DNA of 64,000 nucleotides from Thermodesulfobacteriota bacterium (GCA_030017685.1 JASEHH010000003.1:25319-89318); one strand, 5' to 3'; shown: positions 1,753 through 62,050, numbered from the stretch's first letter. The notes: a model not told the origin generated them from the letters alone. Translations and numbers: made by a program.

Positions 1753-2163
1753 TCTGAAAATAACCTCCCGAAACAACGGATAGGACTTCACCCCGATGGT
1801 CATCACCTCTCCCTCCCTGAAGGAAGAGAACTCCAATCTCTCACCTTTAAAAATCATGGCCTGCTGGGTCATAGGAGAAACAAAAAAAGAGAAATATTCC
1901 ATCTCCAGAGCATCCGTCTTTACTTTGATCTTCCCGCCTTCAACCATCACATCCTTTTCCGTTGAGGGAAGGCCAGCCCCATAGGATTCGAATCGGGTCT
2001 CGACAGGCTTAATCTTCTTGCCGGAGGTGATGAGGAAGTATCCGGTGACAGGTGTCCTATCGACGGAATGAATGTAGTGAAATTCAAACCCCTCGCCCGG
2101 AGAAACTTTTCTTAAAAAAACGATCAGGCCATCCCTCTTATTCCTCACCTCAAGGGTGTCCAC
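1738..2163 (-). CDS. DUF1850 domain protein (TAXI-TRAP operon-associated)
   Basis: 141-aa ORF between the TAXI receptor and the fused permease. DUF1850 proteins typically occupy this position in TAXI-TRAP operons. It overlaps the permease start by 15 nt. Confidence 0.55.
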   Translation of the reverse strand: MDTLEVRNKRDGLIVFLRKVSPGEGFEFHYIHSVDRTPVTGYFLITSGKKIKPVETRFESYGAGLPSTEKDVMVEGGKIKVKTDALEMEYFSFFVSPMTQQAMIFKGERLEFSSFREGEVMTIGVKSYPLFREVIFRHGSR

Positions 2164-2275
2164 GGGATAGAAGAGGATGGCCAGAAAAAAAACGAAGAGG
2201 AGGCATCCCCACTTCCACCTGAAAGTAAGACACCTCCCCTCTTGTCTTCTATTTTTTAGAAAGTATCCCCAATTA

Positions 2276-2350
2276 TCCCCCTCTCCTCTGGTGCCTGCCC
2301 GCCGAATAAGTTCTTTGGCAGACGGGGGAGAGGGCGGGGGTGAGGGGGAG
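2276..2350. repeat. GC-rich nested palindromic intergenic element (CCCTCTCC...GGAGAGGG family)
   Basis: ccccctctcctctggtgcctgcccgccgaataagttctttggcagacgggggagagggcgggggtgagggggag. The outer arms CCCTCTCC/GGAGAGGG and the inner segment aagttctttggcagRcggg recur at 21385. The tail gagggYKggggtgaggggga recurs at 44481. Confidence 0.45.
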
Positions 2351-2360
2351 CATAAATAGT

Positions 2361-11410: not shown

Positions 11411-11951
11411 ATTTAAATTCGAAGCACTAAATCCGAAATCGCTTAAACTCTAAACACTAAACTCTAAACCCTAAACAAATCCAAAAGCTAAAACTCAAAA
11501 AGTTATTTCGATTTCTCAACAATTGAACCGAATATCTTCGTGAGCTCTGTTGCTTCCTTGATCAAGTTCTGTTTTTCCATCATTTGCTCTTCTTTTGGTT
11601 CGGTTAACTCAAGCCAGTACCCACTCTCTTTTGCCTCTTTTCTTGATATCTTTATTCTCATTACAAAATCCTTTCTACTTAATGCTTCTTCGCCCTCAAT
11701 ATAGTTGGCCCCCACTGAGCCAGAAGCCTTGATAAGCTGTCTTGCGTCTTCTATATTGCTTAAAGTCTTTGGTAAATTCTTCACGTAGTTTCTTACCATT
11801 TTGGCAAATCTAAGCGTCCTGTCCCTTAAATCATACGGTTTTGAGTTTTGTGTTTTGGATATTTGAGCTTGTTTAGAGTTTAGGATTTCGAGTTTAGGGT
11901 TTAACATCTTCGTTTCATCCCGTCTTGGCGTGATTTCAATATTCGGATTTT
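11411..11951. repeat. approximately 540-bp repeat unit, copy 1 (near-identical to 50230..50767), carrying a four-helix-bundle gene
   Basis: Direct nucleotide comparison of 11411-11951 with 50230-50767 shows near identity (a few substitutions, one N/S difference in the encoded protein). This includes about 90 bp 3' and about 45 bp 5' of the ORF. The ends are built from ctaaa(c)-type repeats that are approximately inverted relative to each other. Confidence 0.8.
11503..11907 (-). CDS. four-helix-bundle protein (TIGR02436-like, the 23S rRNA intervening-sequence protein family)
   Basis: 134 aa translating to MLNPKLEILNSKQAQISKTQNSKPYDLRDRTLRFAKMVRNYVKNLPKTLSNIEDARQLIKASGSVGANYIEGEEALSRKDFVMRIKISRKEAKESGYWLEL. 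This is the typical four-helix-bundle pattern. A second copy lies at 50320..50724. Confidence 0.75.
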   Translation of the reverse strand: MLNPKLEILNSKQAQISKTQNSKPYDLRDRTLRFAKMVRNYVKNLPKTLSNIEDARQLIKASGSVGANYIEGEEALSRKDFVMRIKISRKEAKESGYWLELTEPKEEQMMEKQNLIKEATELTKIFGSIVEKSK

Positions 11952-13166: not shown

Positions 13167-13276
13167 CCGTTACCTCATCTATGCTTTGCAGAAGGTTATA
13201 ACTATTTTTAACAAGAATTCCTCCCCCTGTCAAAAAACATTTCTCCTTGAAACATGAAGCGGGAGTGTGATACGAG

Positions 13277-14068
13277 ATGGATAGGATGGACTCAGAAAAA
13301 AAGTTGGAAAAACTACAGGAAAAAATAATTCGGTGCCGAAAATGTCCAAGGCTGGTCAATTATTTAAAAGAGGTTCAGGACCGCAGACCCAGGCGATACA
13401 GGGAATGGAACTACTGGTCTAAACCCCTTCCCAGTTTTGGAGACCCGAAGGCCCGGGTTCTTATCATCGGTCTTGCGCCTGCGGCCAATGGGGGAAACCG
13501 GACAGGAAGAATGTTTACAGGGGATCGGAGTGGAGAGTGGTTGTTTGAAGCCCTTCACCGTTTTGGCTTTGCCAATCAACCCAATTCGGCTAGACGGGAT
13601 GACGATTTTGCCTTAAAGGATTGTTACATCACAGCAACGGTCCGCTGCGCTCCTCCGGATAATAAACCCCTGCCCGAAGAGATTGAGAACTGCCGACCTT
13701 ATGTCTTAGAGGAACTCAATCTTTTAAAAAATGTGAAGGTCCTTATTCCGCTGGGACAGATCGCTTTTACACAAACCCTAAAATCTCTAAGGTTAAAAGG
13801 ATACGATATTCCCCCTTTATCTTTTGGCCATGGGAAGTTCTATTCGATTTCAAAACTCCGAACTCCTGACTCCCTGCCTTCGCCGAAACGCTACGTGCAG
13901 GCAGGCGAACTCCGAACTGTCACTCTAATTACAACCTACCACCCGAGCCAGCAGAATACCTTAACCGGCAAACTCACCAGACCGATGTTCTATAAGATCT
14001 TTAAAATGATTTGCTCCGAACTCCCCGCCTACCGGACGGGCAGGCGAGCTTATAGCTCCGAACTTTAA
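13277..14068 (+). CDS. uracil-DNA glycosylase, family 4/5 (Fe-S type), carrying two in-frame repeat-element insertions
   Basis: Translation contains CRKCPRL, GLAPAANGGNRTGRMFTGDRSG and the C-terminal HPS motif (TTYHPSQQ). Two palindromic elements with duplicated flanks are embedded in-frame at 13854-13918 and 14013-14064. Confidence 0.75.
   Translation: MDRMDSEKKLEKLQEKIIRCRKCPRLVNYLKEVQDRRPRRYREWNYWSKPLPSFGDPKARVLIIGLAPAANGGNRTGRMFTGDRSGEWLFEALHRFGFANQPNSARRDDDFALKDCYITATVRCAPPDNKPLPEEIENCRPYVLEELNLLKNVKVLIPLGQIAFTQTLKSLRLKGYDIPPLSFGHGKFYSISKLRTPDSLPSPKRYVQAGELRTVTLITTYHPSQQNTLTGKLTRPMFYKIFKMICSELPAYRTGRRAYSSEL
13854..13918. mobile_element. MITE/REP-like palindromic element (CCTGCC...GGCAGG core) with 11-bp target-site duplication AACTCCGAACT, inserted in-frame in the UDG gene
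   Basis: The sequence reads aactccgaact | cctgactccctgccttcgccgaaacgctacgtgcaggcaggcg | aactccgaact. Element plus duplication add 54 bp (18 codons) and the reading frame is preserved (adds LRTPDSLPSPKRYVQAGE). Confidence 0.55.
14013..14064. mobile_element. second palindromic element with 10-bp target-site duplication GCTCCGAACT at the UDG C-terminus
   Basis: The sequence reads gctccgaact | ccccgcctaccggacgggcaggcgagcttata | gctccgaact, then ttaa. The 42 bp added equal 14 codons in frame, and the stop lies immediately after. Confidence 0.5.
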
Positions 14069-14071
14069 TTT

Positions 14072-14338
14072 ATGATCGTTCACCTTCCCATTGAAGACTG
14101 GCTCGATCTTCACACCTTCTCGCCGAAAGAGATCCCTTCTCTTTTGGAGGAATACCTTGGGGAATGTCAGAGGAAGGGGCTTAAAGAGGTTCGGATCATC
14201 CACGGAAAAGGTAAGGGAGTGCAACGAACTATCGTCCACTCCCTTCTCGAGAAAAATCCTCTTGTCGAATCCTACAGACAGGCTCTCCCTGAGGCAGGTT
14301 CATGGGGTGCTACGATTGTCACTTTGAGAAGACAATAG
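14072..14338 (+). CDS. Smr domain protein
   Basis: 88 aa containing the Smr-like block VRIIHGKGKGVQRTIVHSLL. It starts 4 nt after the UDG stop. Confidence 0.6.
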   Translation: MIVHLPIEDWLDLHTFSPKEIPSLLEEYLGECQRKGLKEVRIIHGKGKGVQRTIVHSLLEKNPLVESYRQALPEAGSWGATIVTLRRQ

Positions 14339-14380
14339 ATTCGGATTGTAAAAAAAAGAATTTTATGGTAGCATTTTTCA

Positions 14381-14536
14381 AAATTTGATGGTCTCGTAAA
14401 AAGTCCCAAAAGTGGTCATTGCGTGCGGAGCGAAGCTATCTCGTATCTCATAAGTGCTTGATTTTATGAAATTGCTTCATCGCTACGCTCCTCTCAATGA
14501 CATGTGGTTGGACTTTTTACGATTTCATCAAATTTA
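14381..14536. repeat. approximately 155-bp extended imperfect inverted repeat upstream of the peptide ABC operon
   Basis: The left arm aaatttgatggtctcgtaaaaagtcccaaaagtggtcattg and the right arm caatgacatgtggttggactttttacgatttcatcaaattt are near reverse complements. The centre (ggagcgaagc...gcttcatcgctacgctcc) is also self-complementary. Confidence 0.45.
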
Positions 14537-14583
14537 ATAATCTTCATTTTCCCTTTTAAAAGGTGAAAAGAAAGGGGGTTTTT

Positions 14584-16128
14584 ATGAAACGACTATTCTG
14601 CTTAATGTTAATTCTCATCCCATCTCTTCTCTTCCTCCCGGTTTCCAGCCCGGCTAAAGTACCCGGAGGAACCGTTACTTATGCGGCCGGTGCAGATCCG
14701 GACCGGCTTGATCCGGCAAATGCAGAGAGCAACCCCTCAGAGGCGGTAAACCGGATGATGTACGAGAACCTCGCCAAATTTGATGAAAAACTGAAGATCG
14801 TCCCCGGGCTCGCCACCAAGTGGGAACAGTCGAAAGATGGCATGACATGGACCTTCTTTCTAAGAAAGGGAGTCAAGTTTCATGACGGCACGCCTTTCAA
14901 TGCAGAGTCGGTCAAAGTTTTTATTGAAAGGATGATTGGACCTGAGAAACCTTCCCGGGCAGGTCTTTATGTCCCCTTTGTGAATTCGGTAGAGATTGTA
15001 GATGACTTCACCATCAAGATCCATTTGAAAACTCCCTTTGCTTTTTTCCTTAACAACCTAGCCCACAGCGCATCAGGAATCATCAGCCCCACGGCTCTGA
15101 AGACTCATGGAAAGGATATTGCCCGTAAACCTGTGGGGACCGGTCCATTCAAGTTTGTCGAATGGATTCATGGCGACCACATCACCCTTGTTCGAAACGA
15201 TGATTACTGGGGAGGGAAGCCCAATCTCGACAAGATCATTATCAGGACGGTCAAGGAGGACAGCGCCCGGGTCATGATGCTCCAGTCAGGGGATGCCCAG
15301 CTGATCGTCCGAATTCCTCCGGAAGACGTTCCCAGACTTGAAAAGGATGCGAAGATTAAACTCGATTCTACGGAAACGCTCCGTGCTCTATACATCGGGA
15401 TCAACTGCTCCAAAAAACCTTTCACAGATGTTCGAGTCAGACAAGCACTCAATTATGCGGTCGATAAAGAGGCCATCGTCAAAAACATCTATCAGGGAAG
15501 GGCATTGACCAGTTCAGGAATTGTTGCTCCTTTGACCACCGGTTACTTTCCGATTCAAGGATACCCCTATGATCCGGAAAAGGCGAAAAAACTCCTCGCT
15601 GAAGCGGGGTATCCCAGTGGCTTCAAAGCAAAGCTCTGGAGCCCTCAGGGCCGTTACCCCAAAGACTTTGAGATGGCTCAAGTGGTTCAACAACAGTTAA
15701 AAAAGGTGGGAATTGACTGCACCCTCGACACAATGGAATGGGCGGCCTATTTAGCCGCAACCCGTAAAGGGCCTGAAGAAAATGAATCCGAACTCTTCCT
15801 GCTTGGATGGGCCCCCTCCACGGCAGAAGCTCGCTGGATTCTCTATCCCCTCTTTACCACCGAACAATGGGTGCCGAAGGGGAACAATCGAAGCTTCTTT
15901 TCAAATAAAGAGTTTGACGAGTTGGTCACCAAATTTACCCGGGCGACGAACAAAGCGGAAATGGATCAATATCTGAAGGCCGCCCAGGAATTGCTGGTCA
16001 AGGAAGCGCCTTCCATCTTTATCCTGGTGACCAAAGAAACCATCGGGATGAGTAAAAAACTCCAGGGCGTGATCAACTCCCCGCTGGAATTGACTTACTT
16101 TGATCATCAGACCTATCTTGAGAAATGA
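14584..16128 (+). CDS. ABC transporter substrate-binding protein, peptide/nickel family 5 (DppA/OppA-like)
   Basis: About 514 aa with a signal peptide and family-5 SBP-like composition. An AAAGGGGG RBS precedes the ATG at 14584. The track start at 14563 is a GTG. It is followed by two permeases and two ATPases. Confidence 0.8.
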   Translation: MKRLFCLMLILIPSLLFLPVSSPAKVPGGTVTYAAGADPDRLDPANAESNPSEAVNRMMYENLAKFDEKLKIVPGLATKWEQSKDGMTWTFFLRKGVKFHDGTPFNAESVKVFIERMIGPEKPSRAGLYVPFVNSVEIVDDFTIKIHLKTPFAFFLNNLAHSASGIISPTALKTHGKDIARKPVGTGPFKFVEWIHGDHITLVRNDDYWGGKPNLDKIIIRTVKEDSARVMMLQSGDAQLIVRIPPEDVPRLEKDAKIKLDSTETLRALYIGINCSKKPFTDVRVRQALNYAVDKEAIVKNIYQGRALTSSGIVAPLTTGYFPIQGYPYDPEKAKKLLAEAGYPSGFKAKLWSPQGRYPKDFEMAQVVQQQLKKVGIDCTLDTMEWAAYLAATRKGPEENESELFLLGWAPSTAEARWILYPLFTTEQWVPKGNNRSFFSNKEFDELVTKFTRATNKAEMDQYLKAAQELLVKEAPSIFILVTKETIGMSKKLQGVINSPLELTYFDHQTYLEK

Positions 16129-16160
16129 TGCCTATCCCTCAATGGGTATGAGGCTACCAG

Positions 16161-16200
16161 AGGGCGACTGAAATCGACGAGTCGCCCTTTTATTTATTTT
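16161..16200 (+). terminator. intra-operon Rho-independent terminator/attenuator after the SBP gene
   Basis: agggcgact-gaaatcgacg-agtcgccct followed by ttttatttatttt. Confidence 0.5.
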
Positions 16201-16212
16201 CCAGGGAGATGG

Positions 16213-17133
16213 ATGGGACGTTACATCTTAAAAAGATCCCTCATGCTTCTGCCTGTCCTTTTGGGAGTTTCGCTGGTCTCCTTTTCCCTGCTCCACATGG
16301 TCCCCGGAGACCCGGCGGAGTTGCTGGCAGGAGAGGAAGCCAATCCAGAATTCATCCAGGCCCTCCGGAAGGAATACGGGTTAGACCAGCCCCTTTACAT
16401 TCAATACTTTCATTTCATCTCCCATGTTGTCCGGGGGGATTTCGGAATCTCTATCCGGAATCGGGAACCTGTCATTAAGCTTCTCAAGGAACGATTCCTC
16501 TTCACCCTCCAGCTTTCTTTTCTCTCGATCCTGATTGCCTGCTTCATCGGTCTGATCGCCGGGGTGATTTCTTCAACCAAGCAGTATTCCCTTTTTGATA
16601 ACATGAGCATGGTAGGCGCCCTTTTCGGTATCTCGATGCCCATCTTCTGGTTCGGTCTGCTCCTGATGCTTGTATTCTCTGTGCATCTGAGATGGTTCCC
16701 GGCCGGTGGAAAAGGAACGATCCTGCACCTCATCCTTCCAGCCATTGCCCTCGGGGCCGCCTCGTCCGCGGTCATCGCCCGCATGACCCGGGCCTCCATG
16801 CTGGAGGTGGTGAGGCAGGATTACATCCGGACTGCCCGGGCCAACGGTCTTCGCGAATTCATCGTCATCTACAAGCATGCTCTGAAAAATGCCATGATCC
16901 CTATCATCACCGTCTTCGGCCTCGAATTCGGATACATGCTCGGCGGGGCTGTATTGACCGAAACGGTCTTTTCATTACCTGGAGTGGGAAGGCTGATGGT
17001 GGAAGGGATCTTCCAACGAGATTACCCCGTCGTTCAAGGTTCGATGCTTCTGGTCGCAACGACCTTCGTCGTGGTCAATCTTCTAACCGATATTGCTTAT
17101 GCTTTTTTTGACCCGAAAATAAGATATGAATGA
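16213..17133 (+). CDS. peptide ABC transporter permease (DppB/OppB-like)
   Basis: 306 aa polytopic membrane protein in an ABC operon context. Its stop overlaps the next gene by 8 nt. Confidence 0.8.
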   Translation: MGRYILKRSLMLLPVLLGVSLVSFSLLHMVPGDPAELLAGEEANPEFIQALRKEYGLDQPLYIQYFHFISHVVRGDFGISIRNREPVIKLLKERFLFTLQLSFLSILIACFIGLIAGVISSTKQYSLFDNMSMVGALFGISMPIFWFGLLLMLVFSVHLRWFPAGGKGTILHLILPAIALGAASSAVIARMTRASMLEVVRQDYIRTARANGLREFIVIYKHALKNAMIPIITVFGLEFGYMLGGAVLTETVFSLPGVGRLMVEGIFQRDYPVVQGSMLLVATTFVVVNLLTDIAYAFFDPKIRYE

Positions 17134-17992
17134 GGCAAAAAGAACGAAAACGATAAGCCAGACGGAAGAGGTCTGGCGGAGACTCAAACGAAACCGTACT
17201 GCCATCATCGGAGGGATGATCGTTTTTCTCTTCGTCTTTGTCGCCATTCTGGCTCCCTGGATTTCTCCTTACCCCCCCAATGAGGGAGATCTGGCGAAAC
17301 GGCTGAAACCTCCTAGCAAGGAACATCTTCTGGGGACGGATGCTCTTGGAAGGGATCAACTGAGCCGGATCATCTTTGGAGCCCGGATTTCCCTTCAGAT
17401 TCAGGTGGTCGCTGTTTTCATCGCTCTCATCATCGGAACGCTCCTTGGCATGGTCGGAGGTTACTATGGGGGAACACTCGACAACCTGATCATGAGACTG
17501 ATGGATATTCTCCTCGCCTTTCCGGGGATCTTCCTCGCCATCTCCATCATCGCCGTTCTGGGTCCCGGCCTGACCAATCTGATGCTGGCCGCGGGGATCT
17601 ACTCGATTCCCCAGTTCGCGAGAATTGCCAGGGGATCTGTCCTTTCTTTAAAAGAAAAGGAGTTCATCGAGGCAGCCCGGGCAGTGGGGGAAAACGACTT
17701 GAATATCCTCTTCCGTTATCTGCTGCCGAACTCCATGGCCCCCCTCATTATTCAGACTACCCTTCGAATGGCCACCGTTCTCCTCACTGCATCCGGCCTG
17801 AGCTTCCTTGGTCTCGGAGTTCAACCCCCCACTCCGGAATGGGGCGCCATGCTTTCTACCGCGAGAGCCTATATGATCACCGCTCCTCACGTGGCCACTG
17901 TTCCGGGGCTGGCGATCATGCTGGTGGTGATGGGCTTCAACCTCTTCGGTGACGGTCTGAGGGACTCGCTTGATCCGAGGTTAAGAGACTGA
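17126..17992 (+). CDS. peptide ABC transporter permease (DppC/OppC-like)
   Basis: 288 aa membrane protein in the same operon. Confidence 0.8.
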   Translation: MNEAKRTKTISQTEEVWRRLKRNRTAIIGGMIVFLFVFVAILAPWISPYPPNEGDLAKRLKPPSKEHLLGTDALGRDQLSRIIFGARISLQIQVVAVFIALIIGTLLGMVGGYYGGTLDNLIMRLMDILLAFPGIFLAISIIAVLGPGLTNLMLAAGIYSIPQFARIARGSVLSLKEKEFIEAARAVGENDLNILFRYLLPNSMAPLIIQTTLRMATVLLTASGLSFLGLGVQPPTPEWGAMLSTARAYMITAPHVATVPGLAIMLVVMGFNLFGDGLRDSLDPRLRD

Positions 17993-18076
17993 TTTGACTT
18001 TGGATTGTGGAATGCGGAATTCGGAATGAAATAAGAATAAAATTACAGACCATGTGTTAGGAAGGGTTTCATAAGA

Positions 18077-19060
18077 ATGGGGACACTTCTGAACATAAAT
18101 AATCTGAAGACCCACTTTTTTTCGTCGGGGCGGACCATCCGGGCTCTTGACGGCGTAAGTTTCCATATCGAGGAAGGAGAAGTCTTCGGGCTCGTGGGAG
18201 AGACAGGTTGCGGAAAATCGGTGACTGCCCTTTCGATTCTAAGGCTCATCCCATTTCCCCCCGGGAAGATCATCAATGGTGAAATCCTCTTCAGGGGAAG
18301 AAATCTTCTCTCCCTTCAGGAGGATGAAATGCGGTCCATCCGGGGGCAGGAGATCTCCATGATTTTTCAGGAGCCGATGACCTCCCTCAATCCCGTATTT
18401 CGCATCGGGGATCAAATGATGGAGGTGATCATGCTCCACCAAAAGTTGAATAGGTCCCGGGCCTTCGAAAAGGCCCTTGAGATGCTCCAGCGGGTCCATA
18501 TCCCGGATGCGGACAGAGTGGTAAAACAATATCCGCACCAATTGAGCGGTGGGATGAGGCAGAGGGTGATGATCGCCATGGAACTCTCCTGCCATCCCTT
18601 CCTCCTGATTGCGGATGAACCCACCACCGCCCTGGACGTCACCATTCAGGCACAGATTCTCAGGCTTATTAAGGAAATAAAAAAGGAATTGCAAACCTCA
18701 ATCCTTTTAATCACACACGATCTGGGGGTGATCGCCGAGATGTGCGATCGGGTGGCCGTGATGTACGCAGGCTCGATAGTCGAGGAGGCAAAGGTCGAAG
18801 AAATCTTTGAAGAACCCAAACATCCCTATACCCAAGGGCTCTGGGGAGCTATCCCGCGAGTAGATCAGGAAAAGGAAGCCCTGGTGGTCATTCCTGGGAT
18901 GGTCCCGGACCTGAGTCAACCTCCGACGGGTTGTAAATTTCATCCTCGATGTCCTTATCGATTTGACCCCTGCGATCAAAAAAAACCTCCTCTTTTTCCG
19001 TTATCCCCCGGACATCTTGTCTCCTGCTATCTCTACGAAGAGGGGAAGAGCCATGAATGA
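18077..19060 (+). CDS. peptide ABC transporter ATP-binding protein (DppD/OppD-like)
   Basis: Translation shows Walker A GETGCGKS, the signature LSGGMRQR and Walker B LLIADEPTTALD, plus a C-terminal oligopeptide-type extension. Confidence 0.85.
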   Translation: MGTLLNINNLKTHFFSSGRTIRALDGVSFHIEEGEVFGLVGETGCGKSVTALSILRLIPFPPGKIINGEILFRGRNLLSLQEDEMRSIRGQEISMIFQEPMTSLNPVFRIGDQMMEVIMLHQKLNRSRAFEKALEMLQRVHIPDADRVVKQYPHQLSGGMRQRVMIAMELSCHPFLLIADEPTTALDVTIQAQILRLIKEIKKELQTSILLITHDLGVIAEMCDRVAVMYAGSIVEEAKVEEIFEEPKHPYTQGLWGAIPRVDQEKEALVVIPGMVPDLSQPPTGCKFHPRCPYRFDPCDQKKPPLFPLSPGHLVSCYLYEEGKSHE

Positions 19061-20018
19061 ACCTCTCCTCAAGGTGAAGGAACTCAAAAAATATTTTCCA
19101 ATCATGCGTGGATGGCGAAAGGGAAAAACCTTTGTCCGTGCTGTGGACGGGATCGATTTTTCCATTCGTCCTGGGGAAACCCTGGGCATGGTGGGAGAGT
19201 CGGGATGTGGAAAAACAACGGTCGGAAGGCTCATCCTTAAGCTCATCGAACCCAGCGAGGGGAAAATTCTCTTTGAAGGGAGGGACCTTGCCCATCTGGA
19301 TAAAAAGGAAATCCATCCCCTGAGGCATGCCTTCCAGATCATCTTTCAGGATCCCTTTGCCTCTCTCAATCCCCGGATGACCGTCAGCGCAATCGTGAGA
19401 CGGCCGATGGAAATCCATGGCCTGGTGGAGCCATCTCAACGGGATGAAAAGGTCTGCCAGCTTCTCGAGTCGGTGGGGCTCATGAGAGAACATCTCAGCC
19501 GATATCCCCACGAATTTTCTGGAGGACAGCGTCAACGGATCGGAATCGCCAGGGCACTGGCCACACAACCCAGACTGATTGTGGCCGACGAACCCACTTC
19601 TGCACTCGACGTATCCGTCCAGGCCCAGATCCTTAATCTGATGAAACAACTCCAGAAGGAGCTGGGATTGACCTATCTTTTCATTTCACACAATATCAGC
19701 GTCATCCGCCACATCAGTGACCGGGTCGCTGTCATGTATTTGGGAAAGATCGTAGAGATGGCAGAAAAAAGGACCCTCTTTCAATCTCCAGCGCATCCCT
19801 ATACAAAAGCCCTGTTAGCTGCCGTCCCCTCTCTTGACCCAAGGCGAAAGAGAGCTGAAATCATCCTTGAGGGAGATGTCCCCAGTCCCATCAACCCTCC
19901 CTCAGGATGCCGGTTCCATACGAGATGCCAATATACCCTTCAAAAATGTTTTGAGGAAGAGCCTTTTCCCCGGCAGGTGGAGGATACGCGATGGGTGGCT
20001 TGTCACCTCTATCCGTGA
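19053..20018 (+). CDS. peptide ABC transporter ATP-binding protein (DppF/OppF-like)
   Basis: Translation shows GESGCGKTT, FSGGQRQR and IVADEPTSALD. The ATG at 19053 overlaps the previous stop (ATGAATGA). The track ORF begins upstream at 18963. Confidence 0.85.
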   Translation: MNEPLLKVKELKKYFPIMRGWRKGKTFVRAVDGIDFSIRPGETLGMVGESGCGKTTVGRLILKLIEPSEGKILFEGRDLAHLDKKEIHPLRHAFQIIFQDPFASLNPRMTVSAIVRRPMEIHGLVEPSQRDEKVCQLLESVGLMREHLSRYPHEFSGGQRQRIGIARALATQPRLIVADEPTSALDVSVQAQILNLMKQLQKELGLTYLFISHNISVIRHISDRVAVMYLGKIVEMAEKRTLFQSPAHPYTKALLAAVPSLDPRRKRAEIILEGDVPSPINPPSGCRFHTRCQYTLQKCFEEEPFPRQVEDTRWVACHLYP

Positions 20019-20110
20019 AATGAAATGATGTGCTCCAGCCAGGGAATAGAAAGTGCTGAGTGTTGGGTTTTGAGTTTGTCACTCCGAACCTAAAAAAGAG
20101 GAGGAAAACA

Positions 20111-21271
20111 ATGTTCACGCTGATTAAAGGGGGAACCCTTTATGGTCCCGAAAAAATGGGGGATCGGGATATCCTCATTGCCGGAAGAACGATAGCCAGA
20201 GTTTCGGAGCATATTGATCTGCCAGAGCAATTCGAGACTCGGGTGATTTCGGCTTCCGGGAAAGTCGTCACGCCTGGGATGATCGATCTGCACGTCCATC
20301 TGCTGGGAGGAGGGGGAGAAGGAGGTCCTCGAACGAGGACGCCGGAGATCACTCTTTCCAAGATCACCCGTGCGGGAGTCACTACGGTAGTGGGTTGCCT
20401 TGGCACGGATGATGTGTCTCGAAGGCCTGAAACCCTTTTAGCCAAGGCCATGCAACTGGAGGAGGAAGGCATTTCAACCTATATCTATTGTGGCTCTTAC
20501 CAGTTTCCGCTTGCCACCATCACTGGATGCGTCCGAAAGGATATCGCCCTTATTCCAAAAGTGATCGGCGTGGGAGAAATTGCAGTTTCTGACCATCGCT
20601 CCTCCCAACCTAGTTTCGAGGAACTCTGCCGGGTCGCGGCAGAGGCACGGGTGGGAGGGATGCTCGGTGGGAAAGCGGGATTAGTCCATCTCCACATGGG
20701 GAGTGGTAAAGGGATGCTCGATCCGATCATGCGGATTGTGAAAGAGACGGAGATCCCGATCGGTCAGTTTCTTCCCACCCATTTAACCCGGACCCTATCG
20801 CTTCTGGAGCAATCCATTCAGTTTGCCAGAATGGGAGGAAATATTGATTTCACTGTGAAGGGACAGGAGTTACAATTCCCGTTGACGACAGCCAGAGCTT
20901 TACAGATGGCGCTCAATGGAGGAGTCAGCATCGAACAGATCACGCTCAGTTCAGATTCAAATGGCTCGATGCCCGTCTACAATGAGAAAGGAGAGATCAT
21001 CAAGCTGGCGGTTGGAGATATTCAATATCTCCATTCGGAATGTAAGGAATTGGTAAAGGGCGGCTTCCCCCTCGATCAGGTTCTAAAAATGGTAACCGCC
21101 AATCCGGCGAAAAGGACTGGAATCGACCGCTGGAAAGGAAGCATTGAAGAAGGTAAAGATGCGGATCTGTTGATCTTAGACAAGGATCTCGAAATAGAAA
21201 CTGTCATTGCAAAAGGGCAAATGATGGTTCACCAGAAAAAAATTCTCATCAAGGGGACTTTTGAGGAGTGA
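20111..21271 (+). CDS. iadA: isoaspartyl dipeptidase (IadA-like amidohydrolase)
   Basis: Translation shows the metal-dependent amidohydrolase pattern (GMIDLHVHLLGGGGEGG..., AVSDHRS, HLHMGSG) typical of beta-aspartyl dipeptidase. A GAGGAGG RBS lies 7 nt before the ATG at 20111. The track start at 20060 is a GTG. Confidence 0.7.
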   Translation: MFTLIKGGTLYGPEKMGDRDILIAGRTIARVSEHIDLPEQFETRVISASGKVVTPGMIDLHVHLLGGGGEGGPRTRTPEITLSKITRAGVTTVVGCLGTDDVSRRPETLLAKAMQLEEEGISTYIYCGSYQFPLATITGCVRKDIALIPKVIGVGEIAVSDHRSSQPSFEELCRVAAEARVGGMLGGKAGLVHLHMGSGKGMLDPIMRIVKETEIPIGQFLPTHLTRTLSLLEQSIQFARMGGNIDFTVKGQELQFPLTTARALQMALNGGVSIEQITLSSDSNGSMPVYNEKGEIIKLAVGDIQYLHSECKELVKGGFPLDQVLKMVTANPAKRTGIDRWKGSIEEGKDADLLILDKDLEIETVIAKGQMMVHQKKILIKGTFEE

Positions 21272-21299
21272 AGCTCCCCGTGCTTCCGCAGGGAGCATT

Positions 21300-21420
21300 T
21301 TGACGACTTCGGCGAAACCCGCCGAAGCATATCCGCCTTCACTGACCCGCCCGCCGAACCTGCCTTCGCCGAAACGCTTCGTGCAGGCAGGCAAGTTCTT
21401 TGGCAGGCGGGAGCTTCGGC
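21300..21420. repeat. nested palindromic element (CCTGCCTTCGCCGAAACGCTTCGTGCAGGCAGG core) in the iadA-peptidase spacer
   Basis: cttcggcgaaacccgccgaag is a hairpin. cccgcccgccgaacctgccttcgccgaaacgcttcgtgcaggcaggcaagttctttggcaggcgggagcttcggc is nearly the same core as the element inside the UDG gene. Confidence 0.5.
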
Positions 21421-21493
21421 AGATACCTTTTCCACATTCATCCCCATTCTTCTGGACGGGGCATCCTGCGAAGGCGGGTGAGGAGAAAATCGG

Positions 21494-22243
21494 ATGAGAC
21501 CACTGATTGGAATCACCTGTTCAAGGGTGGTGGGAGGCGCCTGGGGACTTTACTCCCCGGGGCACTTCATGGATTATACCTTTGATGATTATAGCCAGGC
21601 TGTTCGTTACGGCGGAGGAGCTCCCGTGCTTCTGCCAGTGGCTCAAAATCGGGAAACCCTTCAGACCGTCCTTGAGCGACTGGATGGCCTCATCCTCAGC
21701 GGTGGACCGGATATTAACCCTAAATTCTACGGCGAACAGCCCTTAGAAGGTCTTGGAGAAATTGACGAAGGTCTTGATCAAATGGAGCTTCAGGTTGCGA
21801 AGATGGCTTTCAAAATGGGGCTTCCCATTTTCGCCATCTGTCGGGGCATCCAGATTCTAAATGTCTCCCTCGGAGGAACGCTCTATCAGGACATCGCCAG
21901 CCAGATGGAAGAAAGCATCAACCATACCCAAAAAGCAGATAAGGGAGTCAATACGCATTCGATAAGGATTCAGGGAAAGACATTGCTCCATCAAATTTTA
22001 AAAAGAAAAGTCATCTGGGTGAATGGAAAGCATCATCAGGCGATCAAGGACCTGGCAAAGGGGTTTATCGTCAGCGCTTGGGCGTATGACGGAATCATCG
22101 AGGCCATCGAATACCCGGATAGAAATTTCGTCCTTGGAGTTCAGTGGCATCCTGAAGGATCCTGGAGAGAAGATGCCTATTCAAAGAGACTTTTTCGCGC
22201 CTTTACTCATGCCGCTCGAAAGCCTTCTAAAAGACCGGGCTGA
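21494..22243 (+). CDS. peptidase C26 (gamma-glutamyl hydrolase / class I glutamine amidotransferase-like)
   Basis: 249 aa with GLILSGGPDINP, the catalytic Cys in IFAICRGIQ, and a WHPE-type His region (VQWHPEGS). Confidence 0.7.
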   Translation: MRPLIGITCSRVVGGAWGLYSPGHFMDYTFDDYSQAVRYGGGAPVLLPVAQNRETLQTVLERLDGLILSGGPDINPKFYGEQPLEGLGEIDEGLDQMELQVAKMAFKMGLPIFAICRGIQILNVSLGGTLYQDIASQMEESINHTQKADKGVNTHSIRIQGKTLLHQILKRKVIWVNGKHHQAIKDLAKGFIVSAWAYDGIIEAIEYPDRNFVLGVQWHPEGSWREDAYSKRLFRAFTHAARKPSKRPG

Positions 22244-22279
22244 AATTCCAAGGCGCCCAACTCATCCCAGGGGAAAACC

Positions 22280-22603
22280 TTATACATTCTCCTCTTTCGC
22301 CAGTCTTCCCTTTTCTTTCTGGTAGGCTTCCTTGCCAGCCTCGATAGCCGTGGCCACAATTGATTTCTTTTCTTCAATAACTTCCTTCCCCTTTTCTACA
22401 ACAGAGGTTACCTTGCCCTTTACCTGCTCGATCACTTCATCTGCCTTTCCTCTGGCTTCTCCGGCAAATTCCTTAATCTTTTCTCTTGTCTCCCTCCCTG
22501 ACTTTGGAGCCAATAAGAGCGCAACCCCTGCTCCGATCAGCCCGCCCAGAAAGAATGAAAAGATCAATGGTCCGGCGCTGCATTCACCCTCTTCATGTTT
22601 CAT
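22280..22603 (-). CDS. YtxH domain protein
   Basis: An N-terminal TM segment followed by a KE-rich coiled region (KIKEFAGEARGKADEVIEQVKGKV). An AAGGAGG RBS lies 6 nt before the ATG at 22603. Confidence 0.5.
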   Translation of the reverse strand: MKHEEGECSAGPLIFSFFLGGLIGAGVALLLAPKSGRETREKIKEFAGEARGKADEVIEQVKGKVTSVVEKGKEVIEEKKSIVATAIEAGKEAYQKEKGRLAKEENV

Positions 22604-22646
22604 GGACTGCCTCCTTTCTTTTGCCGACGGCAAAAAAGATATTCCC

Positions 22647-23063
22647 TTATTGATCGTCTTTGTGTTGTTTTAATAGGTTTTTCAAAAAAGTTTGCAAGCC
22701 TACCCTGATACCCGCCTTCATGCCTGAAGCCTCGGCCCTTGCCAATAAACTCACATCTCCAACCATTTCACTCACACGTCTTACATTCTCGCTTGTACCT
22801 TTCACGCTTTCACTGACCCCTTTTATTGAGTTTGAAAAATCTCTTACATCCTCAGCCACCTCATTGATATTGTCAGTAAAATTTCGAAGGCTTTTAAGAG
22901 TCCCCTGAAACTCAGCGAGAGTCGGTTTAATGGACTTCTCGGTCGTCCGGATCAACTCTTTTAATTCTTTGATGGCGCCCTTCAGTTCGATCATGACGAC
23001 GATAAAGATGATGACTCCAGCTATAAAACCAAGAACAATAAGACCCAAAAAGATCGTATTCAT
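22647..23063 (-). CDS. DUF948 domain membrane protein
   Basis: An N-terminal TM helix followed by a coiled-coil with repeated VxxxxxNI/SV blocks. It is paired with a YtxH gene as in ytxG/ytxH loci. Confidence 0.5.
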   Translation of the reverse strand: MNTIFLGLIVLGFIAGVIIFIVVMIELKGAIKELKELIRTTEKSIKPTLAEFQGTLKSLRNFTDNINEVAEDVRDFSNSIKGVSESVKGTSENVRRVSEMVGDVSLLARAEASGMKAGIRVGLQTFLKNLLKQHKDDQ

Positions 23064-23261
23064 CTCCCCTCCGCTTTAAGGCTATTTGGGTATATTATAC
23101 CATAAAACTTTGATCTTTGAAAAAAACTTTTTTAAGGCAGAGACGACCTCGAATACTATCAGGGGTACTTTTTAGCCCCCCTAAAGAGAGCTCTGAAAAA
23201 GTACCTTTTGCTCTCTGATTATAGAGATTTCTGGGCTTTTTCATAAATCTCTTAAAAACAC

Positions 23262-26029: not shown

Positions 26030-26105
26030 ACGATGAACCACATTTATTTTTCATCGTTCATCGTTCATTGTTCATGGTTCATCGTTTATCGTTCATCATT
26101 CATCG
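26030..26105. repeat. heptanucleotide tandem repeat (TCGTTCA, about 9 copies) between convergent genes
   Basis: catcgttcatcgttcattgttcatggttcatcgtttatcgttcatcattcatcgtcat. Confidence 0.7.
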
Positions 26106-44439: not shown

Positions 44440-44590
44440 ATAATCTGATTGTCTCCCTCTCCACTGGCGGGAGAGGGTTGGGGTGAGGGGGAACAGGCGA
44501 TGGTTACCCCCACCTCAATCCTCCCCCCTGCCTACCGGCCCCGGTCCCGACCGAGGGCGGGGCAGGCAGGCGTCGAGGGGGAGGATAAAG
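44440..44590. repeat. cluster of GC-rich nested palindromes (CCCTCTCC/GGAGAGGG and CCTGCCTACCGG...GGCAGG families)
   Basis: tctccctctccactggcgggagaggg (compare 5875-5910), gagggttggggtgagggggaa (compare 2321), and cctcccccctgcctaccggccccggtcccgaccgagggcggggcaggcaggcgtcgagggggagg. Confidence 0.45.
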
Positions 44591-45612: not shown

Positions 45613-45692
45613 CCTGCCTACCGCAGGCAGGCGAATTCCGCCATGCACCACGTTGGGTGCATGGCAGCCCTAAACCTCACATGGTTTAGGGC
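45613..45692. repeat. three consecutive perfect hairpins in the trm112-lpxL spacer
   Basis: cctgcctaccgcaggcagg, gccatgcacc-acgtt-gggtgcatggc, and gccctaaacc-tcacat-ggtttagggc. Confidence 0.5.
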
Positions 45693-50167: not shown

Positions 50168-50229
50168 CTCTTAAATGAATCTCCAACACTCTCCTGTTGA
50201 TTTCCGAATCAACCGCTATCCTAAAAGGT

Positions 50230-50767
50230 TTAAATCCGAAGCACGAAATCCGAAACCGCTTAAACTCTAAACACTAAACTCTAAACCCTAAATAAATCCA
50301 AAAGCTAAAACTCAAAAAGTTATTTCGACTTCTCAACAATTGAACCGAATATCTTCGTAAGCTCTGTTGCTTCCTTGATCAAACTCTGTTTTTCCATCAT
50401 TTGCTCTTCTTTTGGTTCGGTTAATTCAAGCCAGTACCCACTCTCTTTTGCCTCTTTTCTTGATATCTTTATTCTCATTACAAAATCCTTTCTACTTAAT
50501 GCTTCTTCGCCCTCAATATAGTTGGCCCCCACTGAGCCAGAAGCCTTGATAAGCTGTCTTGCGTCTTCTATATTGCTTAAAGTCTTTGGTAAATTCTTCA
50601 CGTAGTTTCTTACCATTTTGGCAAATCTAAGCGTCCTGTCCCTTAAATCATACGGTTTTGAGTTTTGTGTTTTGGATATTTGAGCTTGTTTAGAGTTTAG
50701 GATTTCGAGTTTAGGGTTTAACATCTTCGTTTCATCCCGTCCTGGCGTGATTTCAATATTCGGATTT
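50230..50767. repeat. approximately 540-bp repeat unit, copy 2 (near-identical to 11411..11951), inserted between rfbB and rfbD
   Basis: Nucleotide-level near identity with copy 1 across the ORF and both flanks. Confidence 0.8.
50320..50724 (-). CDS. four-helix-bundle protein (TIGR02436-like), second copy
   Basis: 134 aa. Identical to the 11503..11907 product except for one residue (N/S). Confidence 0.75.
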   Translation of the reverse strand: MLNPKLEILNSKQAQISKTQNSKPYDLRDRTLRFAKMVRNYVKNLPKTLSNIEDARQLIKASGSVGANYIEGEEALSRKDFVMRIKISRKEAKESGYWLELTEPKEEQMMEKQSLIKEATELTKIFGSIVEKSK

Positions 50768-51845: not shown

Positions 51846-51992
51846 TTAAATCCGAAATCCGAATATCGGGCGAAGCTTCCCGAAGGGATCAATCCGAAAC
51901 AAATCCAAAATCCAAATGACTCAATTTTCAAAACGTTACATTAATTTCTGTTTTATGTGTGATTGGAATCTTTTTCGGATTTCGGATTTCGT
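51846..51992. repeat. long-range inverted repeat in the rfbC-rfbB spacer
   Basis: ttaaatccgaaatccgaa (51846-51863) and ttcggatttcggatttcg (51975-51992) are reverse complements. An internal hairpin cgggcgaagcttcccg is also present. Confidence 0.45.
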
Positions 51993-52012
51993 GCTTCGAA
52001 TTTCCGATTTTG

Positions 52013-59148: not shown

Positions 59149-60021
59149 TTAGATAACCTTATTGAGCGGATATTCGATGATCCCCACTGCCCCCCGTTTC
59201 AACAATTTCGGGATGAGTTCCCGCACGACCTTTTCGGAGACCATCACTTCTATGGCAAACCAGTCGCTCTGAAAGAGGTTCGAAATCGTGGGTGCTGTGA
59301 TCGAGGGTAAAATTTCCATTACGCCCTTGAGGTCATTGGCTGAAACATTCATCTTCAGCCCCACCATCCCTTCGGCCCGGAGTGCCCCCTGGAGAAGAAG
59401 GGAGATCTGTTCGATCTTCTCCCTTTTCCACGGATCCTCATAGGACCGGCGATTGGCGATAAACTGGGTATTGGTCTGAAGGAGTTCTGCGACAATACGA
59501 AGTTTATTGGCCCGAAGCGTGCTTCCTGTCTCTGTCACCTCCACAATGGCATCGCACAACCCTTCGATCACCTTGCCTTCGGTGGCTCCCCAAGAGAACT
59601 CCACATCCACCTTGACACCCCTTTCGATAAAATAGCGCCGGGTAAAATTGACCAGTTCGGTAAAGATCTTCCTCCCCTCCAGATCTTTCAGGGTGCGGAT
59701 CGGCGAGTCTTCGGCAACCACCAGCACCCATCGGGCAGGAACCTGGCTTGTTTTTGAGTAAACCAGGTCTTGAACAACCACCACATCCGAGTTGTTTTCG
59801 AGGATCCAGTCCTTACCGGTCAACCCTACATCCAGAGTGCCTGCCTCCACAAACCTCGACATCTCCTGGGCCCGGGCCAGAGTACAGCGGATCTCCTCAT
59901 CATCCACCATAGGGAAGTAGCTGCGGGAACTGACCATGATCTTCCAGCCTGATTTCCTGAAGAGTTCAATCGTGGCGCTCTCAAGGCTCCCCTTTGGAAT
60001 TCCTAATTTCAGCATCTTCAC
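59149..60021 (-). CDS. hisG: ATP phosphoribosyltransferase, long form
   Basis: 290 aa with a HisG-like N-terminus ([11 protein letters not shown]) and a C-terminal regulatory domain. Confidence 0.85.
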
Positions 60022-60395
60022 TTTCCGTATACCTCCTTCGGATCAAAAATTCTCTTCCCTGAAACTTTCCATTCACCCTCTTCATGCCGGTGATGAAAAC
60101 AACTTTGAAAACCTGTATGGCAGGCCGCTCCTCCGATCTGGTCGACTTTTAGAAGAAGGGTATCTCCGTCACAGTCGAGCCAAATCTCCCTGACTTCCTG
60201 AACATGGCCCGATGTCTCCCCTTTTAACCAGAGTTTTTTGCGGGACCTTGACCAGAAGGTAGCCTTTCCTGTCTTCAGTGTCTCTTCCCACGACTTTCGG
60301 TTCATATACCCCAGCATCAGGACTTGATTGGTCGAAGCGTCCTGAATGACGACCGGGATGAGTCCATCCCCTTTTTTAAAATCGATCTCAATCAC
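60018..60395 (-). CDS. hisI: phosphoribosyl-AMP cyclohydrolase
   Basis: 125 aa with [17 protein letters not shown] and the CDGD metal site. GTG start with an AGGAG RBS. Confidence 0.85.
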
Positions 60396-60414
60396 GCTAT
60401 TTCTCCTTCCGTCG

Positions 60415-60567
60415 AAGTTCGGAGTAGTTTAGTTCGCCTGCCTTCGCCGAAGCGGCTTGCCTACATTGAAGCTTTAGCACAAGCAGGCTACGCGCAGGCA
60501 GGTAGTTCGGAGTCTTAAATCTTCTATGTCTTTTTACTCCGAACTCCCAACTCATTACTCCGAACTG
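60415..60567. mobile_element. CCTGCC...GGCAGG palindromic element flanked by TAGTTCGG duplications, plus a tandem TACTCCGAACT pair, at the hisI/DUF72 junction
   Basis: The sequence reads agttcggag tagtt tagttcg | cctgccttcgccgaagcggcttgcctacattgaagctttagcacaagcaggctacgcgcaggcagg | tagttcggag ... tactccgaactcccaactcattactccgaactg. The last motif supplies the C-terminal SSE-stop of the DUF72 gene. Confidence 0.5.
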
Positions 60568-61361
60568 TGTTTCATCAGCAACTTGGCCATCTGAGCCGCA
60601 TTCTTGGCCGCAGAACCGGCATGGCAATTATTAAAAAAGATAAACGTCTTTGCCGTTTTCTTAGAAATGTCCTCGATGTCCGGGACAAACTCCTTCAACT
60701 CTTCCTCACTGTAAAGGTAATCATACCTCACCGAAGTAGGAACATTGAACCAATTGGGGTTCCTTCCATGGAATCGAAAATAACTAATTTCGGATGTTGT
60801 TCTCGGAATGTAGGGCATCAGTTTCGGCAGTTTGGGTTCATCCACGATGCAAAAACCAACGCCGTTCTTCGACAAGAATTCAAAGGTCCCTTCCTTCATC
60901 CAGGTCTGGTTCCGAAATTCAAAGACAAGGGCAACATCCCCCATCTCCTCTTTGAACCTTTCGAGATAGCCGAAATTCTCCCGGTTGGGGAAAAACCCGT
61001 AGGGAAACTGAGCCAGGACACCCGCAAGCTTACCATCCCCGATCAGAGGATCAAGGCTGTATTTAAACTTCTTAAAGGTATCCTGATTGTCTATCATCTC
61101 TCCCGTTTCTTTGTTCCGAATCTCATGGGTCATCCCCTTGAAGGATTTGACGATGAATTCAAAACCGCCTGAGGTCTTCTGGGACATCGCCGCAAAACTC
61201 TTCTGAGAAGGAAGGGTATAATAGGTGAAGTTCACCTCCAGGGCATTAAACCCAAGCTCTTTTTCATAAAAAGATAACATCTCCCTTTCCGGAAGACCAG
61301 GAGGATAGACCGTGCCCTTCCAGTCCGCAAATGAAAATCCACTCGTCCCGATCTTGATCAT
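60555..61361 (-). CDS. DUF72 domain protein (UPF0759)
   Basis: MIKIGTSGFSFADWKGTVYP is the DUF72 N-terminal signature. Confidence 0.7.
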   Translation of the reverse strand: MIKIGTSGFSFADWKGTVYPPGLPEREMLSFYEKELGFNALEVNFTYYTLPSQKSFAAMSQKTSGGFEFIVKSFKGMTHEIRNKETGEMIDNQDTFKKFKYSLDPLIGDGKLAGVLAQFPYGFFPNRENFGYLERFKEEMGDVALVFEFRNQTWMKEGTFEFLSKNGVGFCIVDEPKLPKLMPYIPRTTSEISYFRFHGRNPNWFNVPTSVRYDYLYSEEELKEFVPDIEDISKKTAKTFIFFNNCHAGSAAKNAAQMAKLLMKHSSE

Positions 61362-61468: not shown

Positions 61469-61777
61469 TTATAGGACTGCTGACTTCTCCGGCTGTTCTT
61501 CATCTATTTGGGGGGTCATCCATGAGGGCAACGGTTCACCGGTTGCCTCACTATAAAGTGTTTCAGGAGCAATATCTACATCTCCAGGCCAGCATAAAAC
61601 TCCTATCTCTTTGTTAATATAAAATTGCTTGAAATACTGGAGATCAGAAAAACGACTGAACACTCCCCCTTTTTTATCATAACCTTTGAAATCGATGACC
61701 CCTTTTTTCCCATTCTCGAAGGTAAGTTCCAGTCTATACCCCTCTATATACTTTGCTTCAATTACATCGTAGTACAT
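61469..61777 (-). CDS. DUF2442 domain protein
   Basis: 102 aa. The small beta-rich YYDVIEAKYIEGYRLELTFENG pattern is typical of DUF2442. Confidence 0.5.
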   Translation of the reverse strand: MYYDVIEAKYIEGYRLELTFENGKKGVIDFKGYDKKGGVFSRFSDLQYFKQFYINKEIGVLCWPGDVDIAPETLYSEATGEPLPSWMTPQIDEEQPEKSAVL

Positions 61778-61789
61778 AAAGTCACCTCC

Positions 61790-62050
61790 TTACTTTAACG
61801 GCTCGATCGGGAAAAGAGGTTTTTTCTCCATTGCCAATTCCCAATCCTTTAAAAGCTCAACTTTGTGTAAATCGGCCCATTCCATAACAAGCCCCAGTGC
61901 CCTTGGAGGCAGATATCCCTCCAACACTGCAAAATCTGCTATTCTTATCGATGCCTTATATTCCCCGTATCTTGCGTGAAAATGGGGTGGATAATGTTCG
62001 CTATGGAACATGGCTATTATAATGCCAAAAAATCTGCTTATCTCTGGCAT
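61790..62050 (-). CDS. DUF4160 domain protein
   Basis: MPEISRFFGIIIAMFHSEHYPPHFHARYGEYKA is the DUF4160 signature. Lies directly upstream of the DUF2442 gene (12-nt gap). Confidence 0.5.
   Translation of the reverse strand: MPEISRFFGIIIAMFHSEHYPPHFHARYGEYKASIRIADFAVLEGYLPPRALGLVMEWADLHKVELLKDWELAMEKKPLFPIEPLK

Follow-up and report, generated by a model that had tools for sequence, protein, structure and literature searches.

Palindromic hairpins that probably home into heptamer arrays at gene ends and in coding sequence in a Thermodesulfobacteriota bacterium

To our knowledge, how the smallest bacterial repeats move, whether hairpins of a few tens of bases or arrays of heptamers, is little understood outside the REP/RAYT system. 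Rickettsia palindromic elements (RPEs), which are ~100-150 bp long and known only from Rickettsia, are palindromes that lie in frame in protein genes, adding tolerated peptides to the products, and they are not known to be associated with heptamer arrays. The cyanobacterial small dispersed repeats SDR4-6 (Elhai et al. 2008) reportedly also occur within heptamer repeats and MITEs. For SDR5, the point of insertion lies exactly between nucleotides 3 and 4 of HIP1 (PMC4390886). Heptamer arrays are known from Calothrix and Nostoc (STRR) and from Xanthomonas (GGGAATC) (PMC4692102), and Geobacter metallireducens carries elements of four tandem heptanucleotides (Gmet_H4) both within and between genes (PMC2700814).

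Here we describe a stretch of 64,000 nucleotides (64 kb; the window) from a Thermodesulfobacteriota bacterium, in which palindromes of the form CCTGCC...GGCAGG are associated with arrays of a degenerate heptamer, CCGAACT. Like the REP and REPIN sequences of the RAYT (Y1 HUH) system, these palindromes are short (15-66 nt), GC rich, imperfect, and noncoding, occur in many mostly intergenic copies, occasionally form inverted doublets and nested clusters, and show no target duplication (PMC6006769, PMC3116915). They differ from REPs in lacking the conserved GT[AG]G located 0-2 nt 5' of the foot (PMC6006769), the flank being ACT[C/A] in arrays and unconserved elsewhere; in their fixed register in heptamer arrays, with two copies in frame inside the UDG gene; and in that searches of the window, of L035, and of 80 homologues yielded no RAYT with these hairpins at the flanks. 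With IS200/IS605 they share hairpin-dependent, site-specific insertion without target duplication (PMC6006769), but in IS200/IS605 elements and their gene-less derivatives (PATEs) the two subterminal hairpins differ from each other and integration takes place in a single orientation, 3' of one fixed tetra- or pentanucleotide, whereas the element described here is a single symmetric hairpin with two related subfamilies in opposite orientations. The hairpins resemble the cyanobacterial SDRs in being very small modules at a fixed position of an iterated motif, as their register and empty sites show (PMC4390886 for SDR5), a likeness in behavior only that implies no family membership; the sequences and host phylum of SDR4-6 are unrelated, and the landing motif here is a 7-nt array unit rather than an 8-nt palindrome. 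STRR, the Xanthomonas GGGAATC arrays, and Gmet_H4 resemble the present arrays in having 2-8 degenerate 7-nt units and a specific overrepresentation of period 7, but the unit here is CCGAACT, and hairpins at a fixed unit register do not appear in the descriptions of those arrays that we consulted. Overall, the system lacks the GTAG foot and the extragenic location that define REPs, no flanked RAYT was found in the loci searched, and the target duplication that defines MITEs is absent. Heptamer arrays are a known kind of repeat, as are small hairpins placed at one nucleotide of an iterated motif, and the present system behaves like both; what is new is a heptamer array of deltaproteobacterial type as the landing site for duplication-free hairpin modules, with in-frame effects on proteins. 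When the literature was searched for the repeat and the hairpins as exact strings, no paper containing them was found.

The reading that we favor, and consider probable, is that this is lineage-specific repeat DNA in two layers, in which hairpins resembling REPs and SDRs home into heptamer arrays. The first layer is two inverted arrays of the degenerate CCGAACT heptamer with an AT-rich loop between them, the DUF72 reading frame running into the first array. The second is a 66-nt module, composed of a 34-nt CCTGCC...GGCAGG hairpin and a nested hairpin, that would have been inserted between positions 1 and 2 of one heptamer unit at ACTA^CGAACT (the caret marks the point of insertion), without duplicating the target. 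The hairpins would be nonautonomous mobile elements like REPs or small dispersed repeats, preferring one register of CCGAACT arrays and also able to enter the loops of other hairpins.

According to the ORF list, the genes at the junction lie on the minus strand in the order DUF72 (60555-61361; Pfam PF01904 on homologues), hisI (PRA-CH; 60018-60395; PF01502 on the syntenic genes of L115-L122), and hisG. The 159-nt spacer upstream of hisI (60396-60554), together with the last DUF72 codons, consists almost wholly of repeats. The first array (60532-60566, plus strand) comprises five heptamer units, TTTTACT CCGAACT CCCAACT CATTACT CCGAACT, which in the sense of the transcript (minus strand) read ...cac AGTTCGG AGTAATG AGTTGGG AGTTCGG AGTAAAA ag. 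It encodes the last three DUF72 codons (60558-60566, S-S-E) and the stop codon (60555-60557), the conserved part of the protein extending to ..AAQMAKLL and the tail MKHSSE being array encoded, and it recurs with two point differences in the related contigs L116 and L119. An AT-rich spacer of 18 nt (60514-60531), also conserved in L116 and L119 and forming the loop of a predicted RNA stem, separates this array from a second, inverted one. The first unit of the second array (60503-60513, minus strand, where it reads ACTCCGAACTA, or CT CCGAACT A in the order of the transcript) is the left flank of the insertion site (ACTA^). The palindrome CCTGCC...GGCAGG follows (60437-60502), delimited by the comparison of empty and filled sites, a break in BLAST alignment, and DNA folding. 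The remainder of the array, CGAACTA AACTACT CCGAACT (60416-60436, minus strand), lies 3' of the hairpin on that strand, so that the transcript continues with CGAACT AAACTACT CCGAACT and tcgacGGAAGGAGaaatagc GTG, the last being the hisI start; the array stops 20 nt before this GTG, and the ribosome-binding site GGAGGAG stays free.

An initial annotation of this DNA had recognized the palindrome but gave it 67 bp; the element is 66 nt long, the T at 60503 belonging to the flank. The tandem tactccgaact pair that it described is likewise real (TACTCCGAACT at 60535-60545 and 60556-60566, 21 nt or three heptamers from start to start), with a gap of 10 nt rather than 9, and, as it held, the second copy overlaps the end of the DUF72 gene, whose final codons AGT TCG GAG TAA (S-S-E-stop) are read from that copy. 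The 9-mer CTCCGAACT occurs in eight exact copies in the window against 0.65 expected, a number reached in 0 of 100 shuffles, and all eight are confined to two clusters, one in the UDG gene or at its end and the other at the DUF72/hisI junction. Similarly, CCTGCC-N5-35-GGCAGG has four matches in the window against 0.11 expected. Directly upstream of DUF72 lies a DUF2442/DUF4160 gene pair (61469-62050) that is also present in L208; L115 and L121 lack it and have an alpha-amylase-family gene in that place.

The synteny of DUF72, hisI, and hisG is kept in related metagenomic contigs, and comparison of orthologous junctions, a check that the initial annotation had itself suggested, revealed an insertion polymorphism. 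The junction is free of the hairpin in L116 and L119, the flanks of which are 86-92% identical to the window and which have the MKHSSE tail in common with it; they read ...gatttaagaCTCCGAACTA^CGAACTAAATTACTCCGAACTtcgacgg..., with the core CTCCGAACTA^CGAACTAAATTACTCCGAACT. The window has this same sequence with one base changed (CGAACTAAACTACTCCGAACT; AAACT for AAATT) and 66 nt added at the caret, and the BLAST alignment between L116 and the window splits exactly at 60436/60502. The insertion point is ACTA^CGAACT, with a boundary ambiguity of 1 nt and no duplicated base. On the plus strand the hairpin is flanked by TAGTTCG at 60430-60436 and TAGTTCGG at 60503-60510, and these tagttcg(g)/CTCCGAACT flanks had been taken for target duplications. 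However, both flanks are already present in empty sites (the L116/L119 junction and the UDG loop of L123, described below) as neighboring heptamer units and therefore predate the insertion; a filled site gains the hairpin alone. Nor is CTCCGAACT a preexisting target at gene ends, as had been proposed: it is part of the tandem array CCGAACT CCCAACT CATTACT CCGAACT, a lineage-specific repeat that is replaced in the closest relatives by other heptamer arrays or hairpins. In light of these comparisons it is very improbable that a MITE-like palindrome transposes into preexisting CTCCGAAC(T) sites, duplicating the target and striking gene ends since the target is frequent there. Such a model would account for the copies of CTCCGAACT flanking every array-embedded hairpin and for the location of elements at gene ends, but not for empty sites that already hold both flank copies, nor for flanks that are tandem arrays and also occur without a hairpin (60532-60566, L124, and several loci), and with 0.65 copies expected per 64 kb, two native CTCCGAACT 9-mers in one gene would be far too improbable. 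The elements are palindromic throughout, and three empty/filled pairs are without duplicated bases. At each site, the filled and empty alleles may differ either by gain or by precise loss of the hairpin, both of which fit a comparison of two states.

The 66-nt palindrome, with predicted DNA folds of -15.8 and -16.7 kcal/mol for its two strands, is itself composite. Comparison with 34-nt copies shows that an outer hairpin of 34 nt, the module seen in L034 and L017, carries in its loop an inner hairpin of ~32 nt (TTGCCTACATTGAAGCTTTAGCACAAGCAGGC; 60457-60488, with bounds ambiguous by 3 nt), and the two together make up the 66-mer. Copies of the 34-nt sequence, CCTGCCTT[CT]GCCGAAGCGGCTACGCGCAGGCAGG, lie at L034:3167 and L017:3987, and the outer module is found by itself in L034, L017, and L110.

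We scanned species-representative genomes with the pattern GGCAGGCGA-N0-15-CTCCGAACT and obtained 114 matches, mostly single chance ones; real multicopy elements among them came from only ~10 MAGs, all deltaproteobacterial or Thermodesulfobacteriota and including Syntrophorhabdus and Syntrophaceae. The architecture proved reproducible elsewhere, recurring in independent assemblies of many MAGs, and this repetition rules out an assembly artefact. At all 21 loci with an array-embedded hairpin, which come from different MAGs, the hairpin occupies one fixed register, NACT[C/A]^hairpin^CGAACT (in a wider frame, ..CTCCGAACT[C/A]^hairpin^CGAACT..), with nearly every flanking position invariant (A-A-C-T-C-C-G-A-A-C-T-[C/A] on the left and C-G-A-A-C-T on the right). 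The earlier suggestion that hairpins home to the CTCCGAAC motif accords with all 21 of these copies. The hairpins have CC[TC]GCC...GG[CG]AGG stems, measure 15-66 nt, and give DNA folds of -4.3 to -21 kcal/mol. Most copies are nearly identical, and the hairpins have spread across genera, near-identical 33-34-nt copies being found in different genera and at loci with no relation to one another. The 33-nt and 34-nt subfamilies differ in the fold of their upper parts and are oppositely oriented relative to the heptamer (4/4 versus 3/3 loci).

The same hairpins occur outside arrays. A 33-nt copy at 21359-21391 (plus strand), 97% identical to one in the UDG gene (13873-13905), lies in the loop of the hairpin CCCGCCCGCC..GGCAGGCGGG (21346-21411) and not in a heptamer array, and a 19-nt member of the family, CCTGCCTACCGCAGGCAGG (45613-45631, plus strand; flanks AATC^..^CGAATTCC), was recognized by pattern match and DNA fold. 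Further nonarray copies lie at L017:3750, L017:3987, and L123:2811, the last within a 186-nt MITE-like insertion, and nesting of hairpins is seen at 21346-21411, 60457-60488, and L039:6776. The nonarray copies have no common flank consensus. These observations bear on a serious rival explanation, which we nevertheless judge unlikely, according to which there is no transposition and the hairpins spread by short-homology recombination or gene conversion between arrays and are lost, spontaneously and precisely, by replication skipping the stem base, the register merely reflecting homology. The fixed register and the absence of duplication agree with such a process, as do the constant orientation within each hairpin subfamily (4/4 and 3/3) and the scaffold CTCCGAACTA-[34-nt hairpin]-CGAACTAAnnTACTCCGAACT, which is common to the window and to L034 of another genus. 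However, copies of the same hairpins lie outside arrays without flanking homology (21359, 45613, L017:3750, L017:3987, and L123:2811), the homology arms are just ~10-20 nt long and degenerate, and the entry of a first copy into an array would be left unexplained.

Two other repeats contain nested hairpins of this kind. A second, G-rich hairpin family (CCCCTCTCC..GGAGAGGGG / GGGGTGAGGGG) is present at 2280-2352 and 44440-44590, with CCTGCC-type hairpins nested inside, and in L208, a close relative, one of its members fills the spacer between DUF72 and hisI. The ~186-nt insertion in L123 (2764-2949), absent from the window at 13233-13234, has inverted ends AGAAACCTCTGATT / AATCAGAGGTCTCT, a possible TTTCT duplication, and a CCTGCCTGCCGGTAGGCAGG hairpin nested inside; from these features it looks like a true MITE carrying one small hairpin.

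If, as we favor, the hairpins home into arrays, they might be mobilized as single strands in folded form, by an HUH/Y1-type enzyme (RAYT/IS200-like) or a similar structure-specific one acting in trans. We infer such mobility only weakly. It is the sole well-described mechanism that unites hairpin dependence, site specificity, and the absence of duplication (PMC6006769), but there is no GT[AG]G foot, the subfamilies have opposed orientations, tblastn found no Y1 gene in the window, and the homologues of the L035 gene described below are free of the repeats. An IS200-type target rule would agree with the left flank ..AACT[C/A] in 21/21 array copies, yet the opposite orientation of the subfamilies is hard to square with a simple rule of one left-flank target, and the nonarray copies have no common flank. 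In tblastn searches with IS200 TnpA and E. coli RAYT probes, no Y1 transposase was found in the 64-kb window. One Y1_Tnp gene (IS200-like/RAYT-like) was found near an element, in L035 of a Syntrophaceae MAG (2120-3148; the same locus as L126); it encodes 342 aa with an HYH motif and is 1.2 kb away from a hairpin-bearing CCGAACT array. The flanks of its 80 metagenomic homologues contain neither CCTGCC hairpins nor CCGAACT arrays (80/80), and a RAYT linked to the hairpins is therefore unsupported. More speculatively, CCGAACT arrays might be dedicated landing pads, common to several Thermodesulfobacteriota lineages, at which palindromes of 15-66 nt integrate precisely to the nucleotide, leaving no duplication, by means of a structure- or sequence-specific single-strand integrase or a new templated mechanism, remodeling C termini and inserting peptide cassettes, for example in family-5 UDG; we regard this idea as tentative and, taken as a whole, rather doubtful. 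The locus provides clean pairs of empty and filled alleles and a landing site known to the nucleotide, for which several hairpin families compete; all of these are materials for a biochemical test of mechanism.

The UDG gene (13277-14068, plus strand) contains two of the three empty/filled pairs, and its two hairpin copies lie in frame within the ORF, the others being intergenic. The first array in its coding sequence, CT CCGAACT CCTGACT C^CGAACT CCGAACT (13856-13918, plus strand), was recognized from the protein alignment and from its empty counterpart in L123, and it holds a 33-nt hairpin at 13873-13905 that amounts to 11 in-frame codons, LPSPKRYVQAG. The loop is empty in L123, which reads ..CCTGACTC^CGAACTCCGAACT.. 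(in wider flanks, ..CTCCGAACTCCTGACTC^CGAACTCCGAACTgtc..), whereas the window and L125 have the 33-nt insert there. The same register is occupied recurrently by different hairpins: at the DNA level, UDG orthologues contain at least three hairpin families at NACT[C/A]^CGAACT, the occupant being a 33-nt CCTGCCTTCGCC.. hairpin in the window and L125, a 45-nt hairpin in L210, a GTAGGGAACGG..CCGTTCCCTAC hairpin in L211, and none in L123 and L124, and at the loop position the protein alignment shows a minimum of one additional type of insert, LPRFYRD/G. The GTAGGGAACGG-loop-CCGTTCCCTAC hairpin, present in the L211 UDG loop and at L040 4146-4249, begins with the canonical REP tetranucleotide GTAG; it sits at the CCGAACT-array register and encodes ..VGNGFKPFPT.. 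in several UDG orthologues. At the C terminus, a second array (14014-14064, plus strand) holds a 21-nt hairpin, CCCGCCTACCGGACGGGCAGG, at 14024-14044. This site is empty in L124 (..CTCCGAACTTTAA, ending ..HSEL*) and filled in the window, L123, and L125, where the gain is the 21-nt hairpin plus three more heptamers, or 14 codons. The gene ends ..SSEL-stop on CTCCGAACTTTAA, confirming what the initial annotation had said of this motif. Palindromic insertion in frame into coding genes recalls the RPEs, from which the present elements differ in size, host, and association with heptamer arrays. The closest match to the protein was family-5 UDGB (PDB 2D3Y; E = 3e-51), and in the alignment the array and hairpin add ~20 residues where 2D3Y has a short turn before the ..YHxS motif, suggesting that the insert falls in a loop. 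This alignment is better evidence than the AlphaFold model, a low-confidence one whose weakest segments lie over both inserts and whose mean pLDDT of 57 makes it unfit for fold-level conclusions. The ~9 kb that follow the UDG-Smr genes in the window (~14300-23200) are unmatched at the collinear position in L123, which passes straight to a Fur/rubrerythrin region matching the window from 23223 onward.

That the motif clusters at gene 3' ends, as initially proposed, is borne out at other MAG loci, where on a crude ORF map an ORF stop lies within 4 nt in 13 of 30 motif clusters and within 20 nt in 18 of 30. Six heptamer arrays in the window, of various units, come to within 4 nt of a stop codon. 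Because the arrays usually abut stop codons, they supply variable C-terminal tails, and the proposed alteration of C termini is seen in both genes: DUF72 tails vary after ..QMAKLL among 120 orthologues (MKHSSE, TEQT, QLRNAD, MN, ANSSEQSVRGSEMESSNSKL, and others), and the UDG tail is 14 aa longer than that of L124. Because the hairpins add in-frame segments of 7-15 residues, orthologues that are 90% identical can differ in length and tails for nonfunctional reasons. Repeat arrays set the last residues and stop codons of genes, which matters for annotation and for protein evolution in uncultured Thermodesulfobacteriota. The bacteria whose protein tails are rewritten in this way form an uncultured, sulfate-reducer-like group.

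In the transcript, the inverted arrays at the DUF72/hisI junction might act as a long stem. The predicted fold of the junction transcript is -64.6 kcal/mol (z = -5.2), with the array arms as the outer stems and the hairpin as a side branch, and it is possible, on the strength of this model, that the stem is a processing or stabilizing structure. It is a different and improbable proposition that the repeats are not selfish DNA at all and form instead a selected cis-regulatory RNA between DUF72 and hisI, in the manner of REP/BIME or IVS stems: an RNase III site, an mRNA-stabilizing stem, or a partial terminator. The strength of the predicted fold (z = -5.2) would suit this proposal, as would the placement of arrays, which begin directly behind stop codons and leave ~20 nt free ahead of the following start codon, and there are precedents in the Coxiella IVS, where tandem heptamers mark an RNase III site (PMC4990558), and in REPs reported to stabilize mRNA and to terminate transcription (PMC6006769). 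However, the spacer is wholly different in relatives whose flanking genes are 92-94% identical to those of the window. In L206, an inverted array of another heptamer (ATTGCGG/CCGAAAT) encodes the tail QLRNAD; in L208, a G-rich hairpin and CCGAAAT units fill the spacer; and L121 has no arrays. Such rapid spacer replacement among close relatives argues against a conserved regulator, and the copies inside the UDG coding sequence could not fill such a role. As for a terminator, no stem with a U-tract is present on the transcribed strand of the spacer, and Rfam searches gave no match, either for the window at the gathering threshold or for the junction at E<=1.

The heptamer layer extends well beyond these two genes. 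A simple scan found 13 period-7 arrays in the window against 0.1 expected in Markov-1 shuffles, periods 4-6 and 8-12 being near chance, and TRF reported many period-7 arrays with differing units. The arrays are dispersed between and within genes (9861, 11444/11837, 26046, 46147, 51848/51971, 13856, 14014, and 60416/60532), with inverted pairs at 11444/11837, 50261/50654, and 51848/51971. Related loci likewise have dispersed arrays between and within genes, often as inverted pairs, and arrays without any hairpin are found at 60532-60566, in L124, and at several other loci. Since three units make 21 nt, or seven codons, LRTPNSE-type peptides appear wherever a CCGAACT array is translated. The longest heptamer array in the window consists of eight tandem TTCATCG units between two convergent ORFs (26046-26104). 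Inverted arrays of another heptamer (AAATCCG / TTTCGGA) lie at 51848-51916 and 51971-52010, the left one being interrupted between units by a small hairpin, ATCGGGCGAAGCTTCCCGAAGGGAT, an architecture like that of the DUF72/hisI junction. Two cassettes of ~500 bp, 97% identical to each other (11412-11907 and 50229-50724), each contain a minus-strand ORF of 134 aa that matches Pfam 23S_rRNA_IVP (S23p-like) and have inverted heptamer arrays on both sides, with CTAAACN to the left and NGTTTAG to the right. They resemble the ORF-bearing intervening sequences of 23S rRNA, which in Coxiella have heptamer repeats at their ends (PMC4990558).
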